64,000 nt of DNA from Candidatus Latescibacterota bacterium. Its GTDB lineage: Bacteria > Latescibacterota > UBA2968 > GCA-2709665. The stretch's first letter is position 1. Every line of letters begins with the position of its first letter. The notes below the pieces were generated by a model that was not told the DNA's origin, did no database searches, and saw only the letters and a program-made list of their open reading frames with translations. The stretch covers positions 2,656,001 through 2,720,000 of the forward strand of contig OZ250150.1 of NCBI GenBank assembly GCA_965237675.1. The letters are read 5' to 3'. The translations under genes and the position numbers were made by a program. Shown piece by piece: positions 25,781-43,739 of the stretch.

Positions 25781-25997
25781 GTGAAAAGGCGGGAAGACGT
25801 GAAACGGTAGACGGTAGAAGAAATCCTTGCCCGATCTGCTCTTCCGCTATGCCTCTGGCCTGAACTGAAACCTCACAGGGCAGGCAATCTCTCCCGTCTT
25901 GCGTCTTCCGTCTCCCGGCCTTTCGAAAAAGGGCAAGGGAATAGGGGACGTTTGGGGGTGGCGAAGATTCTAACTCACGGGTGGCGAGACGCGGTTG

Positions 25998-26107
25998 CTT
26001 CGACAGGCTCAGCGCAAGCAACGCTGCGAGACGGGATGAATCGGCCTGCCTGCTGAAGCATGCGAGGCAGGCGGATGAATGGCGACATATTTCATGGATG
26101 GGACACT
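25998..26107 (+). repeat. 110-bp direct repeat copy 1 (REP + GCCTGCCT/AGGCAGGC hairpin)
   Basis: Near-identical to 27088-27197. Confidence 0.85.
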
Positions 26108-26122
26108 TGAGGAGGGCACGTA

Positions 26123-26923
26123 ATGAAGGTTGGCATTTATGCATCGTATTTCGGCAAGGAAGAACCCAAGGCGTTCCCGGACATCGAGTCCTTTATCGAT
26201 CTCGCCTTTGAATTGCGCCTGGATGTCATCGATTTCCGGGTAGATGTGGGGTTCGGCTCCCAGGACACGGACTATCTCAGAGGCATCAAGATAAAATGCC
26301 TGAAAGCCGGGCTGCCCATCGGCTATCTCGCGTCGGGCGGGCATTTTGTGGGTACGGATGACGAGTTGCGACTGAAGGTCGAGCAGGCGAAGGCCGACGT
26401 GGAGGTGGCTGCCTATCTGGGGGCGCCGATGATTCGGCTTTTCTGCGGTGCTCCCGAGGAGGGGGACCGGGAGAGTGAGATCCGGTGTTTTCAGGAAGTG
26501 TGCGATTTCGCCGCCGATGCCGGGATTATTGTGGGCCTCCAGAATCACCCGAGCACGGGTGACGGCGTTCTGCGTATCCTGCGGGAAACAAACCGGGAGA
26601 ACTTCACCTTTATCCTGGACACCGGTCAGTGGGTGGGCTCGCCGGGGCTGAATTTCGGTGTAGGCGATCCGGACGTCGATATCTACCACTACATGGAACA
26701 GACTGCGCCATTTGCTTCCTACGTACGCGCCAAGATCTACAAGATAGACAGCGGTCGGGAGGAGTGGCTCGATTACCCGCGCATCGTCGGGATTCTGAAA
26801 TCGGTGGGCTTCAACGGCGTCATTTCGATCACGTTCGAGGGGAAGGACGTCAACCGCTGCGACGACAGGGAAACCTTCAGGCTGGCGGCGCAGCACCTGC
26901 GCGAAACGATCGCCGCGGCCTGA
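26123..26923 (+). CDS. Sugar phosphate isomerase/epimerase (AP_endonuc_2 TIM barrel)
   Basis: GAGGAGG RBS; AAYLGAPMIRLF, GLQNH, ILDTG, LDYPRI, GFNGVISITFEG. Confidence 0.85.
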   Translation: MKVGIYASYFGKEEPKAFPDIESFIDLAFELRLDVIDFRVDVGFGSQDTDYLRGIKIKCLKAGLPIGYLASGGHFVGTDDELRLKVEQAKADVEVAAYLGAPMIRLFCGAPEEGDRESEIRCFQEVCDFAADAGIIVGLQNHPSTGDGVLRILRETNRENFTFILDTGQWVGSPGLNFGVGDPDVDIYHYMEQTAPFASYVRAKIYKIDSGREEWLDYPRIVGILKSVGFNGVISITFEGKDVNRCDDRETFRLAAQHLRETIAAA

Positions 26924-26930
26924 GCCGCTC

Positions 26931-27102
26931 CCTGAGCTTGTCGAAGGGTCGGCGAAGGGCGTTAAAGAGCGCCAAACAGGTTAGAAAACGCGGGCATTTC
27001 GACAAGCTCAATGACCACGTTTCGACAAGCCGTTTCGAAAGGCTCACTTCGACAAGTTCAGCGCAAGCAGCACAGGCGGTGCAGGCACTTCGACAGGCTC
27101 AG
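26931..27102. repeat. Cluster of TTCGACAAGCTCA/CTGAGCTTGTCGAA REP-like units
   Basis: At least five degenerate copies in the intergenic space; same family as 1769-1820. Confidence 0.75.
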
Positions 27103-27197
27103 TGTAAACAACGCGGCGAGACGGGACGAATCGGCCTGCCTGCTGAAGCATGCGAGGCAGGCGGATGAATGGTAACATATTTCCGGGACGGGACACT
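27088..27197 (+). repeat. 110-bp direct repeat copy 2
   Basis: Near-identical to 25998-26107. Confidence 0.85.
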
Positions 27198-27948: not shown

Positions 27949-28763
27949 AACCGAACGGCTACGGTGTGCTGGTGTCACGGGATCTCCTCTCTCAACCTGA
28001 AAGCCGCACACATCCTGCGTTTTCCTTCCTGATTGGTCCCATCCGTAATTTAACATTCGCATTCAAAGTTCTACGTGCCAGGATACGATCTGCGACTACG
28101 GGGGTCGCCATATCTCGCGTACTCCAGGAAAAGTAACAAAAATACGCATTCAAGATCTACCATTTTGGCAGAAATTCATTAGGTTTATTAATAAAGGTAT
28201 GTTATATTCGGTTTACATTGACGTCACGGTTTATAACTCGCTCGGCCCCACTTAGCCCGGATTATTCAGTGCGCCGTGAGAAGGCGCGGAACTCCAGTGG
28301 GTGAGAGTCCCACCCGACAAGAGTTGCTCCAGTCGGTAGCAATCGGAGCGGGGACATAGGCAACGACGTCTCCGAAGCCTCCGGTGTAGAGGGTCGCAAG
28401 GCGACTCGGCGAGTATGTAGGCCGTAACGTGAGTGAACGCTACAGCAGGCCTCGAAAAAGGCAATGCGGGAGCCGACCCGCCTGAATTTCGGGGAAGGCC
28501 GCCGTCGTTGGGGAAGAGGGCAACGCGCGCACCCAACGGTCCCGCCGGGGCAATGGCGACGGCATGCATACAAGGAGATCCGACGCAACACGGGAAGCCC
28601 TATCGGCGGTGGAGAGCCACCAACCGGCAACCCGCGAGGGACATGCCGGGCCGACAGGGGTGGCGGAGAGGCCCGTAGTACCTGTGAAGCCGGGTAATGC
28701 CGGTGGAGGAAAGGGGCCTTGGTTCAAGGGCAACGTCAAAGGAGCGAGAGCCGGGAGATTGGT

Positions 28764-30089
28764 ATGCGCCTAAGACCTCCGGAAAAGGTTCGGAAGCTGC
28801 AAAGGACGTTGCGTGCCCAAGCGAAGGAATCGCCCAATTACCGATTCTACGCGCTATATGACAGGGTATATCGCGAGGACATCCTGCTTTATGCCTACCG
28901 CAGCTGCAAGGCCAATGGCGGCGCGGCGGGTGTGGACACAGAGACCTTTGCGGACATCGAGTCATATGGACGTGAGCGGTGGTTGGGTGAACTGGCGGAA
29001 GCCGTCAGAAGCAAATCGTATCGAGCCGACCCGATCCGTCGGGTCTACATCCCCAAGGGTGACGGCAGGCAGCGACCGCTTGGTATCCCGACGGTGAAGG
29101 ACCGTGTGGTGCAAAGTGCAGCGATGCTGGTCTTGGAGCCGATCTTTGAAGCGGACCTGCCATCGCAGCAGTATGCCTACCGACCGAAGAGGAGCGCGCA
29201 CGACGCCATCAGGGCGGTACACGCCCTGGTAAATACAGGCCACACGCAGGTCATCGACGCCGACTAGAGCGGCTATTTCGACACGATCCCGCACGCCGAG
29301 TTGATGAAATCGGTGGCGCGTCGCATCTCGGACGGGCGGATGCTGCGTCTGATCAAGATGTGGCTGACCGCGCCGGTCGAAGAGACCGACAAGCGGGGTC
29401 GGAAGCAGCGAACAACGTCGAACAAGGATCAGGGAAGGGGGATACCGCAAGGCGCCCCCATCTCGCCGTTGATGGCGAACCTGTATATGCGCCGGTTCAT
29501 TCTGGGATGGCAGCTTCTGGGACATCAGCAGCGTCTGAAGGCTCATATTGTCAACTACGCGGACGATTATGTGATCTGCTGTCGCGGCACTGCGCAAGAA
29601 GCGATGCGCGCAATGCGATCCATCTTGAAAGCGCTTAAGTTGACGGTCAATGAGACGAAGACGGGCGAATGTACGCTTTTAGAAGGACGATTTGACTTTC
29701 TGGGCTACACCATCGGCCGCTGTTACTCGCCAAAGACGGGCAAGGCCTATATCGGCACGCGCCCGCCAAAGAAGGCCATCCGGCGCATCTGCCGGGCCAT
29801 CAGCGAGGCGACGGCGCGACGGTGGTTGCTGAAAGACCTTCAAGAACGGATTGCCCACCTGAACCGAAAGCTGGTAGGCTGGGGCAACTACTTCTGTCTT
29901 GGACCGGTCAGCAAAGCCTACCGGAGTGGGGACAGCCACACCCGGAAACGGCTCCGCTGGTGGTTGTGCAACAAGCATAGGATACCGGGAAAGGGAACCT
30001 CACGCTTCCCTGACGAAGTCCTCTACGATACGCTGGGACTGGCCCGGCTGGAAAGGCAGACGCGCAACCTTCCGTGGGCGAACGCATGA
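28764..30089 (+). pseudogene. ltrA: Group II intron reverse transcriptase/maturase with in-frame amber stop
   Basis: GAAGVD, RPLGIPTVKDR, YAYRP, DAD*SGYFD (TAG 29265-29267), GIPQGAPISP, YADD, FDFLG, X domain GWGNYF; no En domain. Confidence 0.9.
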
Positions 30090-30133
30090 ATCCTTGTCGG
30101 AGAGCCGGATGCAGGAAATCCGCACGTCCGGTT

Positions 30134-30992
30134 GTGTGTCCAGCGAAGGCTGGCATGTTCAGCAGGAGACAGTCCTGCCGGGGTAAGAGTCAGCAGCCCC
30201 GTAGCTTGGATAGCAGGGTGGCGGGAAACCAAAATCCTGGAGCCTATCGACAGAGTCTCCCTTGGGTGAGATTGCGAGTCATTGGGCCGTAACGAGAGTG
30301 AACGCAGCGGTGGCCCCGAAAGTGCGAAGGTCCGAAGGCCGAGCCCACAACCGGAGGGCGAAGGCAGCATGGGCAGCCGAATGCTGAACGAGACGGCTGC
30401 CCCACTTCGGCGGGGTGGTAGCGATGGCACGATGACAAGGACATGCCGAGCAACTGGAGAAGCCCTCCTCGCCCTGGCGCGAAATCGCCAGAGCAAGGTA
30501 AGCCCTATAACCGGAGACACCGGGAAGGGGGCTGAAGGTGAGAGGGTGGCGGAGGGGCGCGTAGTAGCGAAGAAGTGGGGTAATGCCCGTGGAGCGAAGG
30601 CGCCCTGCTGTTGACCATTCTCCAACAAAAAGGGAGGCACGGGCGGAATGACAAACACGCCCATCAAGGTGCAGGACCTGAGAAGGAGAATATATCTCAA
30701 GGCGAAGGCTGATTTGGCTGGAAGCGGTGGAGTAGGCAGTGGCTATACAAAGGACTCGAACTCTTTTCTGAGTATCGGGTTGACGACCACGGGCCGAAAG
30801 CCACTCCGGTACAATAGGTCCCATAACCCTTGAGAGGAAATCAGCAGGAAAGCCCGGTGCCGGCAAACGGCACGCCGGGTTTGACGTGGCGGGAGTTGGA
30901 AACGTGACCACGGGAGCCGGACTGAGGCCCATCGCGAAAGCGGTGGAATGGCCACCGGACCCTACCGTCGGCGCGCCAGCTCTCGACCCTAC
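30134..30992 (+). mobile_element. Group II intron 2 (inner; IEP internally deleted), inserted in domain V of intron 1
   Basis: 5' GTGTG at 30134; own DV (GCCCGGTGCC..GGCACGCCGGGTTTGA) and DVI ending CCCTAC at 30992; removal restores GTCCGGTTCGATGAG. Confidence 0.9.
30648..30790 (+). pseudogene. Vestige of intron 2 IEP (N-terminus fused out of frame to C-terminus)
   Basis: GGGAGG RBS + MTNTPIKVQDLRRRIYLKAKAD, then in another frame FGWKRWSRQWLYKGLELF. Confidence 0.8.
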
Positions 30993-31720
30993 CGATGAGC
31001 GGGATGTGGAAACGGAGCACGGAGAGGCTATTGAGGCACCGCCAGACGAAAGGGGCGGAAACAGATAGGCCCCTCCTAAACCACCGCGCCACATCTCGAC
31101 TCTACCAAAAAGAGGTAGTTTCCTTGTACAAGAGGTTGTTTATCCCTATATTTAGGGGTGACAAAAAAGAACAACCTAAAGAAAGGAAACTACCGTGGTA
31201 TCAAGACAAAACAAACGGTGATGAAGTTTGCAAGCATAATGGGCAAGAAGGTCGAAGCGGACTTCGACGGAGGCGTGACGAGCAGCGACGGCGGTGTGAT
31301 GCTTTTGCGGAAGTTGGAGTCGCGCATGGGCATCGTGGATCGGATCGTCGATGCGCTTTGTGACGGGCGTCACCAAAGTTATATCGCGCATACTTATCGG
31401 GACCTTATCAGACAACGGGTGTTCCAGATCGCCTGCGGCTACGAGGATGCCAAAGACAGCAACACCCTTCGCCCGGACCCTGCGCTGAAAGCCGCGTGCG
31501 AGCGGCTGCCGATCACGGATCAGGATCTGGCGTTTCAGCCGACGTTGTCGCGTCTGGAGAACAGCGTGAGCCGCAGGGACCTCTACCGTGTCGGTGAGGC
31601 GTTTGTGGAGGCGTTCATCGCCTCGTATGAAAAGCCGCCGAAGAAAATCGTGTTGGACATCGACGACACGGATGACCCAACGCACGGGTGCCAGCAACTG
31701 TCGTTGTTTCACGGTTATTT

Positions 31721-33102
31721 GAGCTCTTGTCAAGAGGTGTGTAAAAAGAATCAGGCGGCCAGTTTTTCGGATTGTGTGAAGGGTTTGCCATCCCTGTATA
31801 TTTGACCGGCATAGACGGCAGGCAAGAGATGGGACGCCTGTAGCTTACGGAAGCGTTTTTCTGCAACGACCAAGACGCGCCAAATGAGTGCTGTGGCGTT
31901 TTTGACTTTCTTGAATCGCTTGGCGACGTTGGTACGGAGGCGTACCGAGGCAAAGGGACTTTCCACGACATTGGTGGTCCTGATGTGTCTCCAGTGGGGT
32001 TCGGGAAAATCATAGAAGGCGCCCATGCGGTCCCAGTCGCGAAAAAGCGTGTCGACCGCATCCGGATAAGCCTTTTGGAAGTGTGCCGCGAAGCGTTGTC
32101 TGAGCTTGTTGGCGGCCTCTCGGGTTTTGGCGTAAGGCATCTGAGTCAACAATGCTGTGGCGTGCGCCTGAACGCGTTTGGGCAGTTTGTCTAACACGTT
32201 GATGATCTTGTGGTTCCAGCATCGCTGTTGGGTCGCTTCGGGCCAGATCTCATCCGCGGCTGCCCAGATGCCCAGGTTGCCGTCAGCCACCAACAGCACC
32301 GGCACGTTCAGTCCCCTGGTGTGCAGATCGCGCAGGACGTCCTTCCACGACTGGATCGATTCGCGGTAGCCCGGCTGGAGGGCTAAGACTTCTTTGCTTC
32401 CGTCGCTGAGGGCGCCAATAACCACCAACAGGGCTGCCTTTTCCTTCTCCAGGCCCGCTTTAACGTAAATGCCATCGGCCCAGGCGTAGACCAGTTCTCG
32501 ATCCCGTAGGCTGCGGCTGCGCCAGAGTTGGTGTTCGCCTTCCCACTTGGCACGCAGACGTGAAATGGACGCACACGATAAAGGAGCGCCTTCTCCCAAG
32601 AGACCGCGCAGCGCCAGTTCGAAGTCACCCAGCGAAAGGCCGCGTAAATACAACTCGGGAAGCAGATCGCCTACTTCCTTGGTGCGTCGAGCGAACAGCG
32701 GCAGAATCCGGCTTTCAAACCGCGCTTCCAGACCCCGCACTCTCGGCCGCCGCACCTCGACCGTACCGCAGGTCAGCGCAAGCTTGCGAGGCTTCCCATA
32801 GCCGTTGCGATACCCGGGTGAGGGATCCACACCCGCACGGCGCTGGTAGGGAAACCGACCCAGAAAGGCCGTCATCTCTTCTTCCAATACCTGCTGTAAA
32901 CGACCTTGAATCTCATTGCGTGCCCACGCTTCAAGGGCATCCCAAACAGGTGTGGACACTGCCGGGGTGTTTTGCGTATGTTCTTTCACGGCGACTCTCC
33001 TTCCTGCCGGAACCGCATTCGGCTCGGGTTGTAGGTAAACTTCTTGCTACAAGGAAGATAGGGTCGCCCTTTTCTTTTTTCCACACCCTTTTAATTTAAC
33101 TC
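31721..33102 (-). mobile_element. IS256-family element A
   Basis: 8-bp TSD GGTTATTT (31713-31720, 33103-33110); imperfect ~30-bp TIRs GAG...GGTGTG.AAAAAGAA. Confidence 0.93.
31751..32989 (-). CDS. IS256-family (Mutator-like) transposase
   Basis: YRNGY, RPRVR, WADGIY, VADG, QRCWNHK, RTTNVVES. Confidence 0.93.
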   Translation of the reverse strand: MKEHTQNTPAVSTPVWDALEAWARNEIQGRLQQVLEEEMTAFLGRFPYQRRAGVDPSPGYRNGYGKPRKLALTCGTVEVRRPRVRGLEARFESRILPLFARRTKEVGDLLPELYLRGLSLGDFELALRGLLGEGAPLSCASISRLRAKWEGEHQLWRSRSLRDRELVYAWADGIYVKAGLEKEKAALLVVIGALSDGSKEVLALQPGYRESIQSWKDVLRDLHTRGLNVPVLLVADGNLGIWAAADEIWPEATQQRCWNHKIINVLDKLPKRVQAHATALLTQMPYAKTREAANKLRQRFAAHFQKAYPDAVDTLFRDWDRMGAFYDFPEPHWRHIRTTNVVESPFASVRLRTNVAKRFKKVKNATALIWRVLVVAEKRFRKLQASHLLPAVYAGQIYRDGKPFTQSEKLAA

Positions 33103-34967
33103 GGTTATTTTGATAGTATTGCTACATGCCGCTGCATGTGTATGAAGGGCACTCGGGCAAACTCATCACGGCGCTGTTGCGGCCCGGATGCAGAATGGAC
33201 GGACGCACGATGGCGGCGATCTTAAGACGCGTTCTGGATCGGGTGTTGGCAGCGTGGCCGAAGGTTCGGATTCTCTTGCGTGGCGACGGGCACATCTCTG
33301 CGCCGGAAGTGCACGAACTATGTCAGGAATATCGCATCGATTTCCTTCTGGAACAGATGGTTAACAAGAAGCTCAAAGCCCTCGGCCAACCCCTGATGGA
33401 CGATGTCGCTGCACAGACCCAGACGGGTGAAGCACCCGTGCGTCTTTTCACGGCTTTCGATTATCAGGCCAAGTCCTGGAAGCGACCGCTCAGGATCATC
33501 TACAAGGCGGAAATGACCCACGACAAAGCCAACCCTCGCTTTGTCGTCACCAATATCCGTAACCGAACCCCCAGGTTCCTCTACGAGAAGATCTACTGCG
33601 CGCGCGGGCGCACCGAAGGCTTCATCAAAAACCACAAGACCTATCTGCGTTCTGACAGAACCTCCTGCCACCGCTTTTCAGCCAACCAGTCCCGGCTCTT
33701 CTTGCACAGCGCCGCCTACGTGCTCCTGCACGCCCTCAAAGAATCGGGAATGAAAGGCACCTCCTGGGTCAAAGCCGACTTCGATACCATCCAACTGCGG
33801 ATTCTGAAAATCGGCGCCCGCGTTCGAGAACAGACAACAAGGATCCGATTCCACTTCCCGACATCGTATCCCGATAAGGACCTGGTACGCGCCATCATCT
33901 ACAATCTCGATACCGCGTGATGATCAGACACCGCAACAATCAATACAATCCAGACCCAAAGCAACACCAAGGCATCACTGTGACCAGAAACAACCCCAGT
34001 CTCCTTTGAATCCCACCCAAACAGCTTTAAAGATCCAATACCGACTCAACCTTTACAATCACCCTTGCCGAATACATGCTCTACGACCTTCTTCACGCAA
34101 TTTTATACAATTGCATGAATTATTCAGGCTAGCTATATGCTGAATGCTGGTTGCTTCCGTTGTATCTTGCGAAAAATTTGAGCTCGGCCAGCTAAAAGCA
34201 ATGACAAATCCGCCGCAGGAGTTTGGTCATGATGGAATGCTTGTTGTTGGCGATCATGCCTCTGTTCTTGCTTGCTCAGCCAAGCGTCACACGTGACCTG
34301 GTCAGGGACGTTGAATGTGACTTCCGCGTTTTTCTGAGCGGATGTCGTTGAAAGTGGCCCAGGCAATAAGGCTAGGATTCCGGTAGCCTGCGGACGATTG
34401 CTGGAGAATCGGGTGTGGTTAGACAAATACTCGTATAGTGTACAAAGTTTCACTATGTCGGATTCATCTCACCCGTGAAACCCACTGTGGATGAGAGCCA
34501 CGATGGGCGTGTCCTGGGTTGATGTAGGCACCCGCATTGGTTCGGATTTGCAGCAATGCTGGACCGGTGGATCCCCAGTGTATACCGACGCGTTCGACTA
34601 ACTTGCGTGGTGCGTGCAAATCAGACGATCGCACTCACGCCCCCAGCGCCTTGTCCAAAGACGTATCGGTGCTTGGATTTTCGTGGTCCGTGGTGATTTG
34701 AAACTCGGAAATCGAACGATGCGCGAATTGCCGGTTGGAACCATGACTTCCTCGGGTCATGGGTAGGAACTCAGGACCGGCGTAACTTAACTAAAATCAA
34801 GCGGATTCGACGCCGACTCTCGAAAACAAGAACGGTAGCGGTCGCGCGAAATAGCGTTGAAGAGTAATGTGGCGGAGTGAGGAGATGGATGGGCAATGGC
34901 AGGTTTAGAGACCATGGAAAAGAGGGTACGAAAGATAAAGCCTGTATGATGACACCGGGAATATAAG

Positions 34968-43355: not shown

Positions 43356-43739
43356 GTGGGGAGACACCAACCGGCAGCCCGTGAGGGACAGGCCCGTAGT
43401 ACTGATGATGCCGGGTAACGCCGGCGGAGGAAAGGGGCCTGACTTCGGACGCGTTTGTGCAGGGGACAACGGTATGAAGAGTGGCACAAGCCTAAAACCA
43501 CCAAAGAAAGACGAGGCGATTCCGGAACAGGCTTGGTCTTCAGGTGAAGATGCGTGGGCAGCGCAGACAGCGTGTGCCTGTAAGCGACGTCCGTCGGAGA
43601 GCCGGATGCTGTTAATTCGCACGTCCGGTTCGACGAGGGGGATGTGGAAACGGAGCATGGAGCGGCTATTGAGGCACCGCCAGACGAAAGGGGCGGATAC
43701 TGACAGGCCTCTAACCACAGCACTGCATCGTTACTCTAC
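43356..43739 (+). mobile_element. 5'-truncated, ORF-less group II intron remnant (DII/III to DVI)
   Basis: Homologous to intron 1 28608-28725; intact DV GAGAGCCGGATGC..GCACGTCCGGTTCGACGAGGGGG; ends CTCTAC at 43739. Confidence 0.85.

Follow-up and report, generated by a model that had tools for sequence, protein, structure and literature searches.

The question raised by the locus described here is whether a group II intron that lies inside domain V (DV) of a second group II intron came there by accident or belongs to a lineage that seeks out this site. The window, by which we mean the whole stretch of DNA analyzed (64 kb, positions 2656001–2720000 of contig 1 of genome G000, a Candidatus Latescibacterota bacterium), contains an outer intron (intron 1) that encodes a reverse transcriptase (RT) and, within its DV, an inner intron (intron 2) of 859 nucleotides (nt). 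A first-pass annotation made from the letters alone had read the arrangement as a twintron formed by precise insertion into DV and had raised the possibility of a dedicated DV-targeting lineage. We conclude, with a probability of roughly 0.87, that the inner intron belongs, as a non-autonomous form with its RT deleted, to a family of bacterial group II introns that home to the DV of other group II introns.

Boundaries of the inner intron and its pairing with the host

RF02003, an Rfam model of group II intron domain I, has only two gathering-level matches in the window, both on the plus strand: one in the outer intron (28295–28432, 102.6 bits) and one in the inner intron. The features of the inner intron, including the exon-binding sites (EBS) and the intron-binding sites (IBS) of the host with which they pair, are the following.

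30134–30992, plus strand: inner intron (intron 2), 859 nt, a probable member of the DV-homing family with its open reading frame (ORF) deleted (Rfam, folds, empty sites, letter check)
30121–30125, plus strand: IBS2, CGCAC, in the host DV; pairs 5/5 with EBS2
30127–30133, plus strand: IBS1, TCCGGTT, in the 3' strand of the host DV; pairs 7/7 with EBS1
30160–30297, plus strand: domain I core; RF02003, 111.4 bits (gathering score 49), model positions 1–138 of 138
30322–30326, plus strand: EBS2, GTGCG, complementary 5/5 to CGCAC
30349–30355, plus strand: EBS1, AACCGGA, in a 9-nt loop closed by GCCC/GGGC (fold)
30648–30833, plus strand: 61-codon ORF, the longest sense ORF of the inner intron, whose start, MTNTPIKVQDLRRRIYLKAKAD, is a remnant of the N-terminus of the family RT
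30850–30882, plus strand: DV of the inner intron (AAGCCCGGTGCCGGCAAACGGCACGCCGGGTTT), with AGC triad, 2-nt bulge and GCAA loop; folds alone and within the whole intron
30887–30992, plus strand: domain VI of the inner intron, long and branched; fold z = -3.7

The inner intron begins with GTGTG (30134–30138) and ends with ...CCCTAC (ACCCTAC, a CTAC end) at 30992. On the host side GTCCGGTT ends at 30133 and CGATGAG begins at 30993; the insertion separates nucleotide 32 of the outer intron's DV from the closing C, one nt before the end of DV. A letter-by-letter check found every coordinate that the first-pass annotation gave for the inner intron, its flanks and EBS1 to be right, and the same check together with the fold of the loop upheld its 7/7 complementarity between EBS1 and TCCGGTT. 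A given 7-mer is expected by chance about 0.05 times in 859 nt. The AACCGGA loop is homologous to the EBS1 loop of intron 1, which varies with the 5' exon (TGAATT/AATTCA in three copies of intron 1 in this genome, TATCA/TGATA in another, copy D), and because this homologous loop covaries with its exon we identify the inner loop as EBS1. The DV strand of the inner intron itself, CCGGGTT, pairs with its own EBS1 at 5 of 7 positions.

As a ribozyme the inner intron has a domain I, GUGYG/AY ends, a DV, a domain VI with a bulged A, and both EBS1 and EBS2 pairings; the ribozyme is kept and the RT gene is lost. The description of this element as ORF-less holds in that it has no RT gene, but strictly it is ORF-deleted, the first ~22 and last ~25 RT codons being still present; the C-terminal remnant, WSRQWLYKGLELFSEYRV, lies downstream of the 61-codon ORF in a different frame. 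Folding of both RNAs, a check suggested at the outset, recovered DV hairpins and a long domain VI with a bulged A in the inner and in the outer intron; in the minimum-energy fold of the inner domain VI the bulged A is at 30986, 7 nt from the 3' end. The minimum-energy fold of the whole intron was used for local hairpins only, and no global structure was drawn from it. In both introns domain VI is ~105 nt long with an internal branch. A long, highly structured domain VI is a feature of class F (IIF) introns (PMC3753933; this source and PMC2882425, PMC4424553, PMC4649490, PMC7049729, PMC3245105, PMC4028801 and PMC8919778 are cited throughout from excerpts), which points, as a lead from one feature to which we attach no class assignment, to class F for both introns among the classes considered (D, E and F).

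Occupied and empty copies of the outer intron in the same genome

The genome holds four long copies of the outer intron (A to D) plus fragments. In copy A, in the window, and copy B (contig 1, ~3.957–3.961 Mb, minus strand), the inner intron lies between ...GTCCGGTT and CGA. Copy C (contig 1, 522852–520887), copy D (contig 1, 4793951–4792005) and a fragment, E, at window positions 43386–43739 read straight through this point (GAGCCGGATGC.GGAAAT.CGCACGTCCGGTTCGA(T/C)GAG), with an uninterrupted ...CGCACGTCCGGTT-CGA(T/C)GAG. Two of the five intron-1-type DVs are interrupted at the same bond, and three are intact. Insertion is proven because these three relatives of intron 1 in the same genome keep an uninterrupted DV; the uninterrupted outer intron by which a twintron is recognized is known from copies C and D and fragment E, and the proposed insertion into DV is borne out by three empty sites. 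Fragment E is a truncated, ORF-less piece of the outer intron in which DV is intact and unoccupied and domain VI is present.

Over 860 columns the two inner copies show 13 mismatches and 2 gaps (98.3% identity), whereas their host copies are 94.3%, 94.7% and 96.5% identical over 1414, 455 and 113 columns (15/860 versus 109/1978 differences, Fisher p = 1.8e-6). The inner copies are therefore more alike than their hosts, as would be expected of two separate insertions into diverged hosts rather than of one copied twintron. The same argument has been applied to the twintrons of Thermosynechococcus (PMC2882425).

A family of introns at the same position in many phyla

Our census took one genome per species and searched with the first 20 nt of the inner intron, leaving the flank free. 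It returned at least 119 stretches with at least 129 copies in many phyla, labeled as Alphaproteobacteria, Acidobacteriota, Nitrospirota, Chloroflexi-type Anaerolineales, Gemmatimonadota, Verrucomicrobiota, Burkholderiales and others (loci are numbered with the prefix L). A host DV was recognized in either of two ways: the loose rule asks for a triad-like start and six base pairs joining the two foot strands, the strict rule for one RNAfold hairpin with 11 or more pairs. The loose rule places 82 of the 129 copies listed in DV at the position seen in the window, 5 directly after another family member, 40 elsewhere and 2 too near a contig end; the strict rule finds 49 of the 127 analyzable copies in a DV, among the matches listed. 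Among the 33 copies that pass the loose rule alone, 23 share one variant host DV, GAACCGG...GTCCGGGT (GAACCGG...CCGGGT), and most others are visibly imperfect DVs. The 82 DV sites among the matches listed amount to 55 distinct host DV sequences in 79 loci, with two doubtful.

The 40 other sites include DV remnants of which only the 3' half is left (e.g., L037, L107, L122, L139), non-intron sites ending in ...CGGTT (L021, L023, L059, L088, L134), relatives with a changed EBS1 that matches a different exon (TCCTTCG/CGAAGGA; CTTCATG/CATGAAG), a Cytophagales set at ...GTTCCGAGTT and a few matches that are not introns. The first-pass annotation had reasoned that relatives sharing the same EBS1 ought not to occupy mostly non-intron sites, and they do not: the 14 distinct exon/EBS combinations with EBS1 exactly AACCGGA, among the matches listed, fall in an intact DV in 10 cases, in the 3' half of a DV remnant in 1 and at non-intron sites ending in CCGGTT in 3. 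Head-to-tail arrays, in which another copy supplies its 3' end as the 5' exon, occur in L048, L086, L092 (up to three in a row) and L103; such arrays are expected if it is the 5' exon that is recognized and an intron re-inserts at the old 5' junction.

A second scan, of metagenome contigs for the 11-nt 3' strand of DV followed by GTGYG, gave at least 120 matches. The 5' end of the family is present in 44, of which 37 lie in a strict DV, 4 do not and 3 are too short, whereas in the remaining 76 matches listed the sequence is ordinary, and one conserved gene accounts for 23 of them. No intron of an unrelated type was found at the DV site among the at least 120 metagenome matches listed. That an unrelated intron fell into DV ectopically, with a fortuitous EBS1 match, has nothing for it beyond the single locus in the window, is contradicted by all comparative results, and strikes us as having practically no chance of being true.

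The hosts are varied. Rfam scans of 18 loci, in which the host was assigned by position only, gave same-strand domain I matches 0.5–2.1 kb upstream of the insertion in four families: RF02005 (L066, L032, L092), RF01999 (L032, L085), RF02012 (L062) and RF02003 (L099, L028, L046, L052 and the window itself). Because these hosts span four domain I families, the DV-homing family does not appear to be tied to one kind of host intron, and by their domain I matches some members seem to lie in DVs of their own family type.

Family members come in two main sizes. Of the 65 listed copies with a recognizable 3' end, 40 measure 1910–2010 nt and 19 measure 765–927 nt, the rest being 3 shorter pieces and 3 longer composites. 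The long form (~2.0 kb) encodes a protein of ~433 amino acids with RVT_1 and GIIM domains and no endonuclease domain. The inner intron of the window aligns end to end, at 77–80% identity, with other ~0.85-kb forms from different phyla, whereas its alignment with full-length forms covers positions 1–579 only. Because short forms of different phyla align end to end, the ~0.85-kb miniature is suggested to be itself a spreading lineage; a 927-nt alphaproteobacterial form represents a separate deletion.

In a quick maximum-likelihood tree of 35 intron-encoded proteins (IEPs), the only part not made up of DV-site introns is a nested clade of four retargeted introns (99% support in the SH-like approximate likelihood ratio test, SH-aLRT); the root is unsure because the outgroup, the RT of the window's outer intron, is very distant. 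Two members labeled Acidobacteriota (L076) and Verrucomicrobiota (L087) have nearly identical family IEPs, at a tree distance of ~0.01, a likeness that could reflect either recent horizontal transfer or a binning error.

Plasmids of Bradyrhizobium, Cupriavidus, Caballeronia and Paraburkholderia carry relatives of the family IEP at 77–89% identity. At least 5000 plasmid records contain a group II RT match of some kind; at least 23 of these stand at 80–90% identity and at least 13 at 60–80%. At both loci examined (2/2), Bradyrhizobium diazoefficiens pNK6b and Paraburkholderia phymatum pBPHY02, the intron lies in a DV, and in pNK6b an annotated host RT gene stands immediately upstream of the insertion. 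With the covariation described below, the census, the plasmid loci and the metagenome scan support across phyla the dedicated DV-targeting lineage that was first suggested from this one locus.

Covariation of the exon-binding loops with the host domain V

The pairing of EBS1 with its exon was examined in 131 copies, the 129 listed plus the two of this genome, of which 95 were scored and the others dropped as too short (19) or lacking the anchor motif (17). The scored copies reduce to 71 distinct EBS1/IBS1 combinations, 32 of which pair at 7/7 and 26 at 6/7 (58 with 6 or 7). Mean EBS1 pairing is 6.01, against 4.57 ± 0.11 in 1000 re-pairings of the exons, whose maximum was 4.94. Compensatory changes between EBS1 and IBS1 include TACGGAT/ATCCGTA, TCCGGGT/ACCCGGA or ATCTGGA, CGGGTT/AACCCG, CTACGTT/AGCGTAG and TACAGTT/AACTGTA, and examples for EBS2 are GTGAG/CTCAC, GAGAG/CTCTC and GTGGA/TCCAC. 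The first nucleotide of the 3' exon is C in 29/35 distinct cases, T in 4/35 and G in 2/35.

A variant of the host DV is seen in L032, L040, L044, L048 and ~20 more loci of one alphaproteobacterial metagenome-assembled genome (MAG), and in L140 (Bradyrhizobium pNK6b, 2958–2990). In this variant, present in more than 20 copies, AAC replaces the AGC triad and GGGT replaces GGTT at the paired position, which would mismatch the catalytic triad helix; the inner introns it contains have EBS1 ACCCGGA or ATCTGGA, fitting the variant. The AAC/GGGT form may represent escape by the host followed by tracking by the parasite, or it may mark dead hosts. We take the matching of host variants such as GAACCGG...CCGGGT by EBS1 ACCCGGA and ATCTGGA as a possible sign of an arms race.

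These data also bear on an explanation that involves no targeting, namely that one old chance insertion into a DV was multiplied afterwards as a composite twintron. The many copies of one MAG with identical flanks are what such hitch-hiking would leave, and mobility of a composite twintron has been raised for Thermosynechococcus (PMC2882425). However, the 55 distinct host DVs among the matches listed and the four Rfam domain I families of hosts speak against a single founding event, as do the EBS1 changes that match changes of the host DV, the greater likeness of inner copies than of hosts, the occurrence of long and short inner forms in identical host flanks, the head-to-tail re-insertions and the presence of empty and filled hosts side by side, and we regard this explanation as very improbable.

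Proposed mechanism

For homing to DV we posit that the domain I loops would read the 3' strand of DV, EBS2 GUGCG with CGCAC and EBS1 AACCGGA with UCCGGUU, and that the intron would enter by reverse splicing just 3' of DV nucleotide 32, ahead of the closing C and with the orientation of its host. Introns whose IEP has no endonuclease are primed at replication forks (PMC4424553), and the lack of an endonuclease in the family IEP suggests that integration would most likely be into DNA at replication forks. ORF-less members would presumably need the 433-amino-acid RT/maturase in trans, and small shifts in EBS1 would track the DV variant at hand. No group II sequence is more conserved than the target, so that introns of several classes offer a site. 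From the known role of DV, the host intron would be expected to splice only after exact removal of the inner intron, because the interrupted DV cannot form.

Group II introns are known to reverse splice into RNA as well, and the inner intron might instead enter the RNA of the host intron, be copied to DNA and become fixed by recombination. The RNA of a host intron is transcribed, abundant and itself reverse transcribed during its own mobility. In RNA, however, the target strand is locked in the DV helix, and the three ectopic CCGGTT sites outside introns, together with the tandem re-insertion at 5' junctions, fit ordinary DNA targeting; we consider the RNA route unlikely.

Limits of the evidence and present state of the element

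A number of observations count against homing to DV as a general explanation, or against its operation in this genome today. With respect to the family, the census is biased towards close relatives because an exact 20-mer was required, a single alphaproteobacterial MAG supplies more than 20 of its copies, and MAG labels may be wrong. In a control of 75 analyzable non-intron metagenome sequences, which share their last 11 nt by construction, the loose DV rule passes 7/75; the strict rule passes 1/75, itself a genuine uninterrupted DV. For EBS2 the mean pairing is 4.08 versus 3.73 ± 0.08 on re-pairing, and the best of the 1000 re-pairings attained 4.08 as well; this statistic is weak because the DV strand hardly varies. 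With respect to the local copies, gene conversion between the two inner introns could mimic recent independent insertion. In RNA, IBS1 and IBS2 lie inside a stable DV helix, which must open for the inner intron to splice. The joint of 30133 to 30993, which skips 859 nt, is present in two public RNA-library runs and also in both other runs (assembled contigs, complex communities), and it is uninformative on splicing because empty copies of intron 1 exist as DNA. A 337-nt RNA-library contig over the 5' junction, with 13 differences, was not used, as it comes from a relative and DNA carry-over is possible.

A tblastn search of the whole genome with the family IEP matched only intron-1-type RTs, at 33–36% identity, and found neither an RT of the inner lineage nor a cognate IEP that could serve the ORF-less intron in trans. 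The host IEP in the window is broken by a stop codon, the EBS1 of copy B carries a G-to-A change, and three DV targets identical to the occupied ones stand free. The RT gene of copy C has a stop and that of copy B carries an insertion sequence (IS) of 1696 nt (~3960090–3958395), of the same type as the IS in the window, leaving copy D, probably with a GTG start, as the sole copy with an open RT frame. Traces in relatives are few. In 60 related genomes, besides 64-nt conserved segments, we found 3'-terminal matches of 53–133 nt in G017, G020 and G060, and only two genomes have more than these: one has the 5' end of a twintron at a contig edge (another genus, with a different host DV) and the other a 3' fragment followed by post-DV sequence.

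Together these facts favor the view that the twintron is here a fossil, in which the inner intron neither moves nor splices and the two outer copies are permanently inactivated. This view is compatible with an origin by homing to DV, but not with present activity. Opposed to it are the integrity of all recognizable ribozyme elements of copy A, the divergence of only 1.7% between the inner copies, the open intron-1-type IEP of copy D, which could in principle act in trans, and the protein-free self-splicing known in some related classes (PMC3753933). We judge the two sides to be evenly balanced. Because an RT of their own lineage is lacking, free targets remain and relatives hold few traces, the local copies look like imports that are now stranded, and the inner intron may simply have killed its hosts rather than gate them, because the cognate RT/maturase is absent from the genome. 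Returning to homing as the origin of the arrangement, we think that the element of this genome probably entered two already diverged copies of the outer intron, and that it is today probably immobile, because no RT of its own lineage is now in the genome, and possibly unspliced.

Comparison with known nested introns

It is established that twintrons exist, that introns home into other introns and that ORF-less introns can be served in trans (PMC4424553, PMC2882425, PMC4649490, PMC7049729, PMC3245105). As in the DV family, the TeI3/TeI4 introns of Thermosynechococcus elongatus include ORF-less forms that home to a conserved site of related RT-encoding introns, and inner copies resemble one another more closely than do the diverged outer ones, a pattern interpreted there as recent independent insertions; an IEP in trans mobilizes the ORF-less form, and entry into other mobile elements was regarded as a means of gaining ever-new harmless sites (Mohr et al. 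2010, PMC2882425). Unlike the DV site, the TeI3/TeI4 target falls within the intron ORF, between its first two ATGs, in the catalytically dispensable domain IV (PMC2882425). In the same excerpts TeI3/TeI4 are confined to one genome and one intron family, whereas the DV family has several structural host families in many phyla, and the genome of the window, unlike that of T. elongatus, is without a cognate IEP. The nested introns of Methanosarcina acetivorans likewise show repeated site-specific homing into group II introns with a self-renewing site (Dai and Zimmerly 2003, via PMC4424553); by the title of that paper the targets are related intron ORFs, not DV, and the case is archaeal and local. 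The Trichodesmium twintron is a bacterial intron in an intron for which sequential splicing was shown, but its site is in domain I and it is a single locus (Pfreundt and Hess 2015, PMC4649490). In plant mitochondrial "zombie" twintrons splicing of the inner intron is lost, and in the lycophyte cox1 case the site is in domain IV, not DV; these too are single loci (PMC7049729). A fossil twintron in the window would resemble the zombie twintrons, except that the host here cannot splice either. In the excerpts of these sources, the known bacterial and archaeal intron-in-intron targets are domain IV or the ORF, or domain I.

The DV site also invites comparison with the sites of other specialized lineages. 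IIC introns have a very short EBS1 and no EBS2 and insert just downstream of a DNA hairpin. The DV site, like IIC sites, is at the 3' foot of a hairpin; the inner intron nevertheless differs from the IIC type, since it uses a 7-bp EBS1 and a 5-bp EBS2 on the 3' strand of the hairpin itself and inserts inside the stem. Like the DV family, the IIC introns, which insert behind terminator or attC hairpins, and the IIB1 introns found at start or stop codons are lineages adapted to a recurrent safe motif (PMC12584367). The 2025 introduction of that source on site-specialized bacterial lineages names the IIC and the start/stop-codon IIB1 introns and no DV-homing lineage (PMC12584367).

We found no description of a DV-homing intron lineage in the literature searched; key older twintron papers may mention one, so its absence from print is not established, and specialists may well have noticed single cases of insertion into DV. 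The psbF twintron of the Euglena gracilis chloroplast, that of Copertino and Hallick from 1991, reportedly interrupts DV, which would have the topological consequence proposed here for intron 1. It would differ from the family described here as a single organellar case among degenerate introns, with no sign of a mobile lineage dedicated to DV.

The outer intron and the nest of mobile elements

The features around the twintron are the following.

28256–28268, plus strand: left end of the IS, its outermost 13 nt (CCCGGATTATTCA), which is the 5' exon of intron 1; the same type of 13-nt end flanks the 1696-nt IS in copy B
28262–28268, plus strand: IBS1 of intron 1, TTATTCA, within the left end of the IS
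28269–31105, plus strand: outer intron (intron 1) as a whole, RT-encoding, from GTGCG at 28269 to ...CTCTAC at 31105
28269–30133, plus strand: 5' part of the outer intron, with the GTGCG end, domain I, EBS1, the IEP gene and the first 32 nt of DV (Rfam match, comparison of copies)
28483–28488, plus strand: EBS1 of the outer intron, TGAATT (covariation with the 5' exon among intron-1 copies)
28764–30089, plus strand: IEP gene of intron 1, with RVT_1 and GIIM and without an endonuclease domain (ORF list, Pfam, translation)
30102–30133, plus strand: DV of intron 1, nt 1–32 (GAGCCGGATGCAGGAAATCCGCACGTCCGGTT) (hairpin fold, uninterrupted homologs)
30993–31105, plus strand: 3' part of the outer intron, the last DV nucleotide C (30993) and then a long branched domain VI, ending in ...CTCTAC at 31105
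31106–34128, plus strand: remainder of the IS, with a DDE_Tnp_1_4 transposase in two pieces, 31218–31730 and 33126–33917
31751–32989, minus strand: second IS, Mutator-type, with a Transposase_mut ORF; splits the DDE_Tnp_1_4 transposase gene
34116–34128, plus strand: right end of the IS, TGAATTATTCAGG, which matches the 13-nt left end

The stop that breaks the IEP gene of intron 1 is an in-frame TAG at 29265–29267. The hairpin fold of the intron-1 DV has -14.9 kcal/mol, and domain VI of the outer intron has a bulged A at 31099 (fold z = -4.3). The three tiers originally described, an inner intron in an intron in an IS, are real, and the nest at 28256–34128 in fact comprises four elements: the IS, the outer intron 13 nt inside its left end, the inner intron, and the Mutator-type IS that splits the transposase gene itself. 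An inverted-repeat search for the ends of the IS gave nothing useful at 14 nt or more, and the ends were set by comparison with the second IS copy instead.

This IS end is evidently the homing site of the outer intron family. Copies C (~522852) and B (~3961502) stand between two abutted 13-nt half sites resembling IS ends (...AATTCA / TGAATT...) with no IS body between them; such abutted half sites may be a solo pair of inverted repeats or a junction of the IS-circle type. Immediately 5' of the left end of the IS is a markedly A+T-rich stretch (28050–28255) in an otherwise G+C-rich region, and further upstream a short peptide-coding stretch occurs twice in the ORF list (~25981–26060 and 27100–27175), on either side of a gene at 26123–26923, resembling a small repeated element.

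Implications

Spliceosomal introns and the catalytic core of the spliceosome presumably descend from group II introns, and what restrains group II introns in bacteria is a standing question. A lineage aimed at the one sequence that no group II intron can alter freely would be a natural antagonist of introns, each insertion making the splicing of the host depend on the invader or ending it. Whether the cross-phylum family is in the full sense an obligate hyperparasite of group II introns, with DV as a self-renewing homing site, with autonomous and miniature forms, disabling or gating its hosts, bearing signs of an arms race and undescribed as such, is a proposition to which we give an even chance. 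The family also bears on how a genome is partitioned among selfish elements, since the inside of another parasite offers safe and self-renewing sites.

Two intron-finding pipelines state that twintrons are excluded or missed (PMC4028801, PMC8919778), and insertions into DV explain a class of "broken" introns that automated pipelines discard. The family supplies natural EBS/IBS variants for a compact, endonuclease-free, retargetable intron, and its carriage by cultured bacteria (Bradyrhizobium, Paraburkholderia) makes the idea of an intron lineage that homes to the DV of other introns directly testable.

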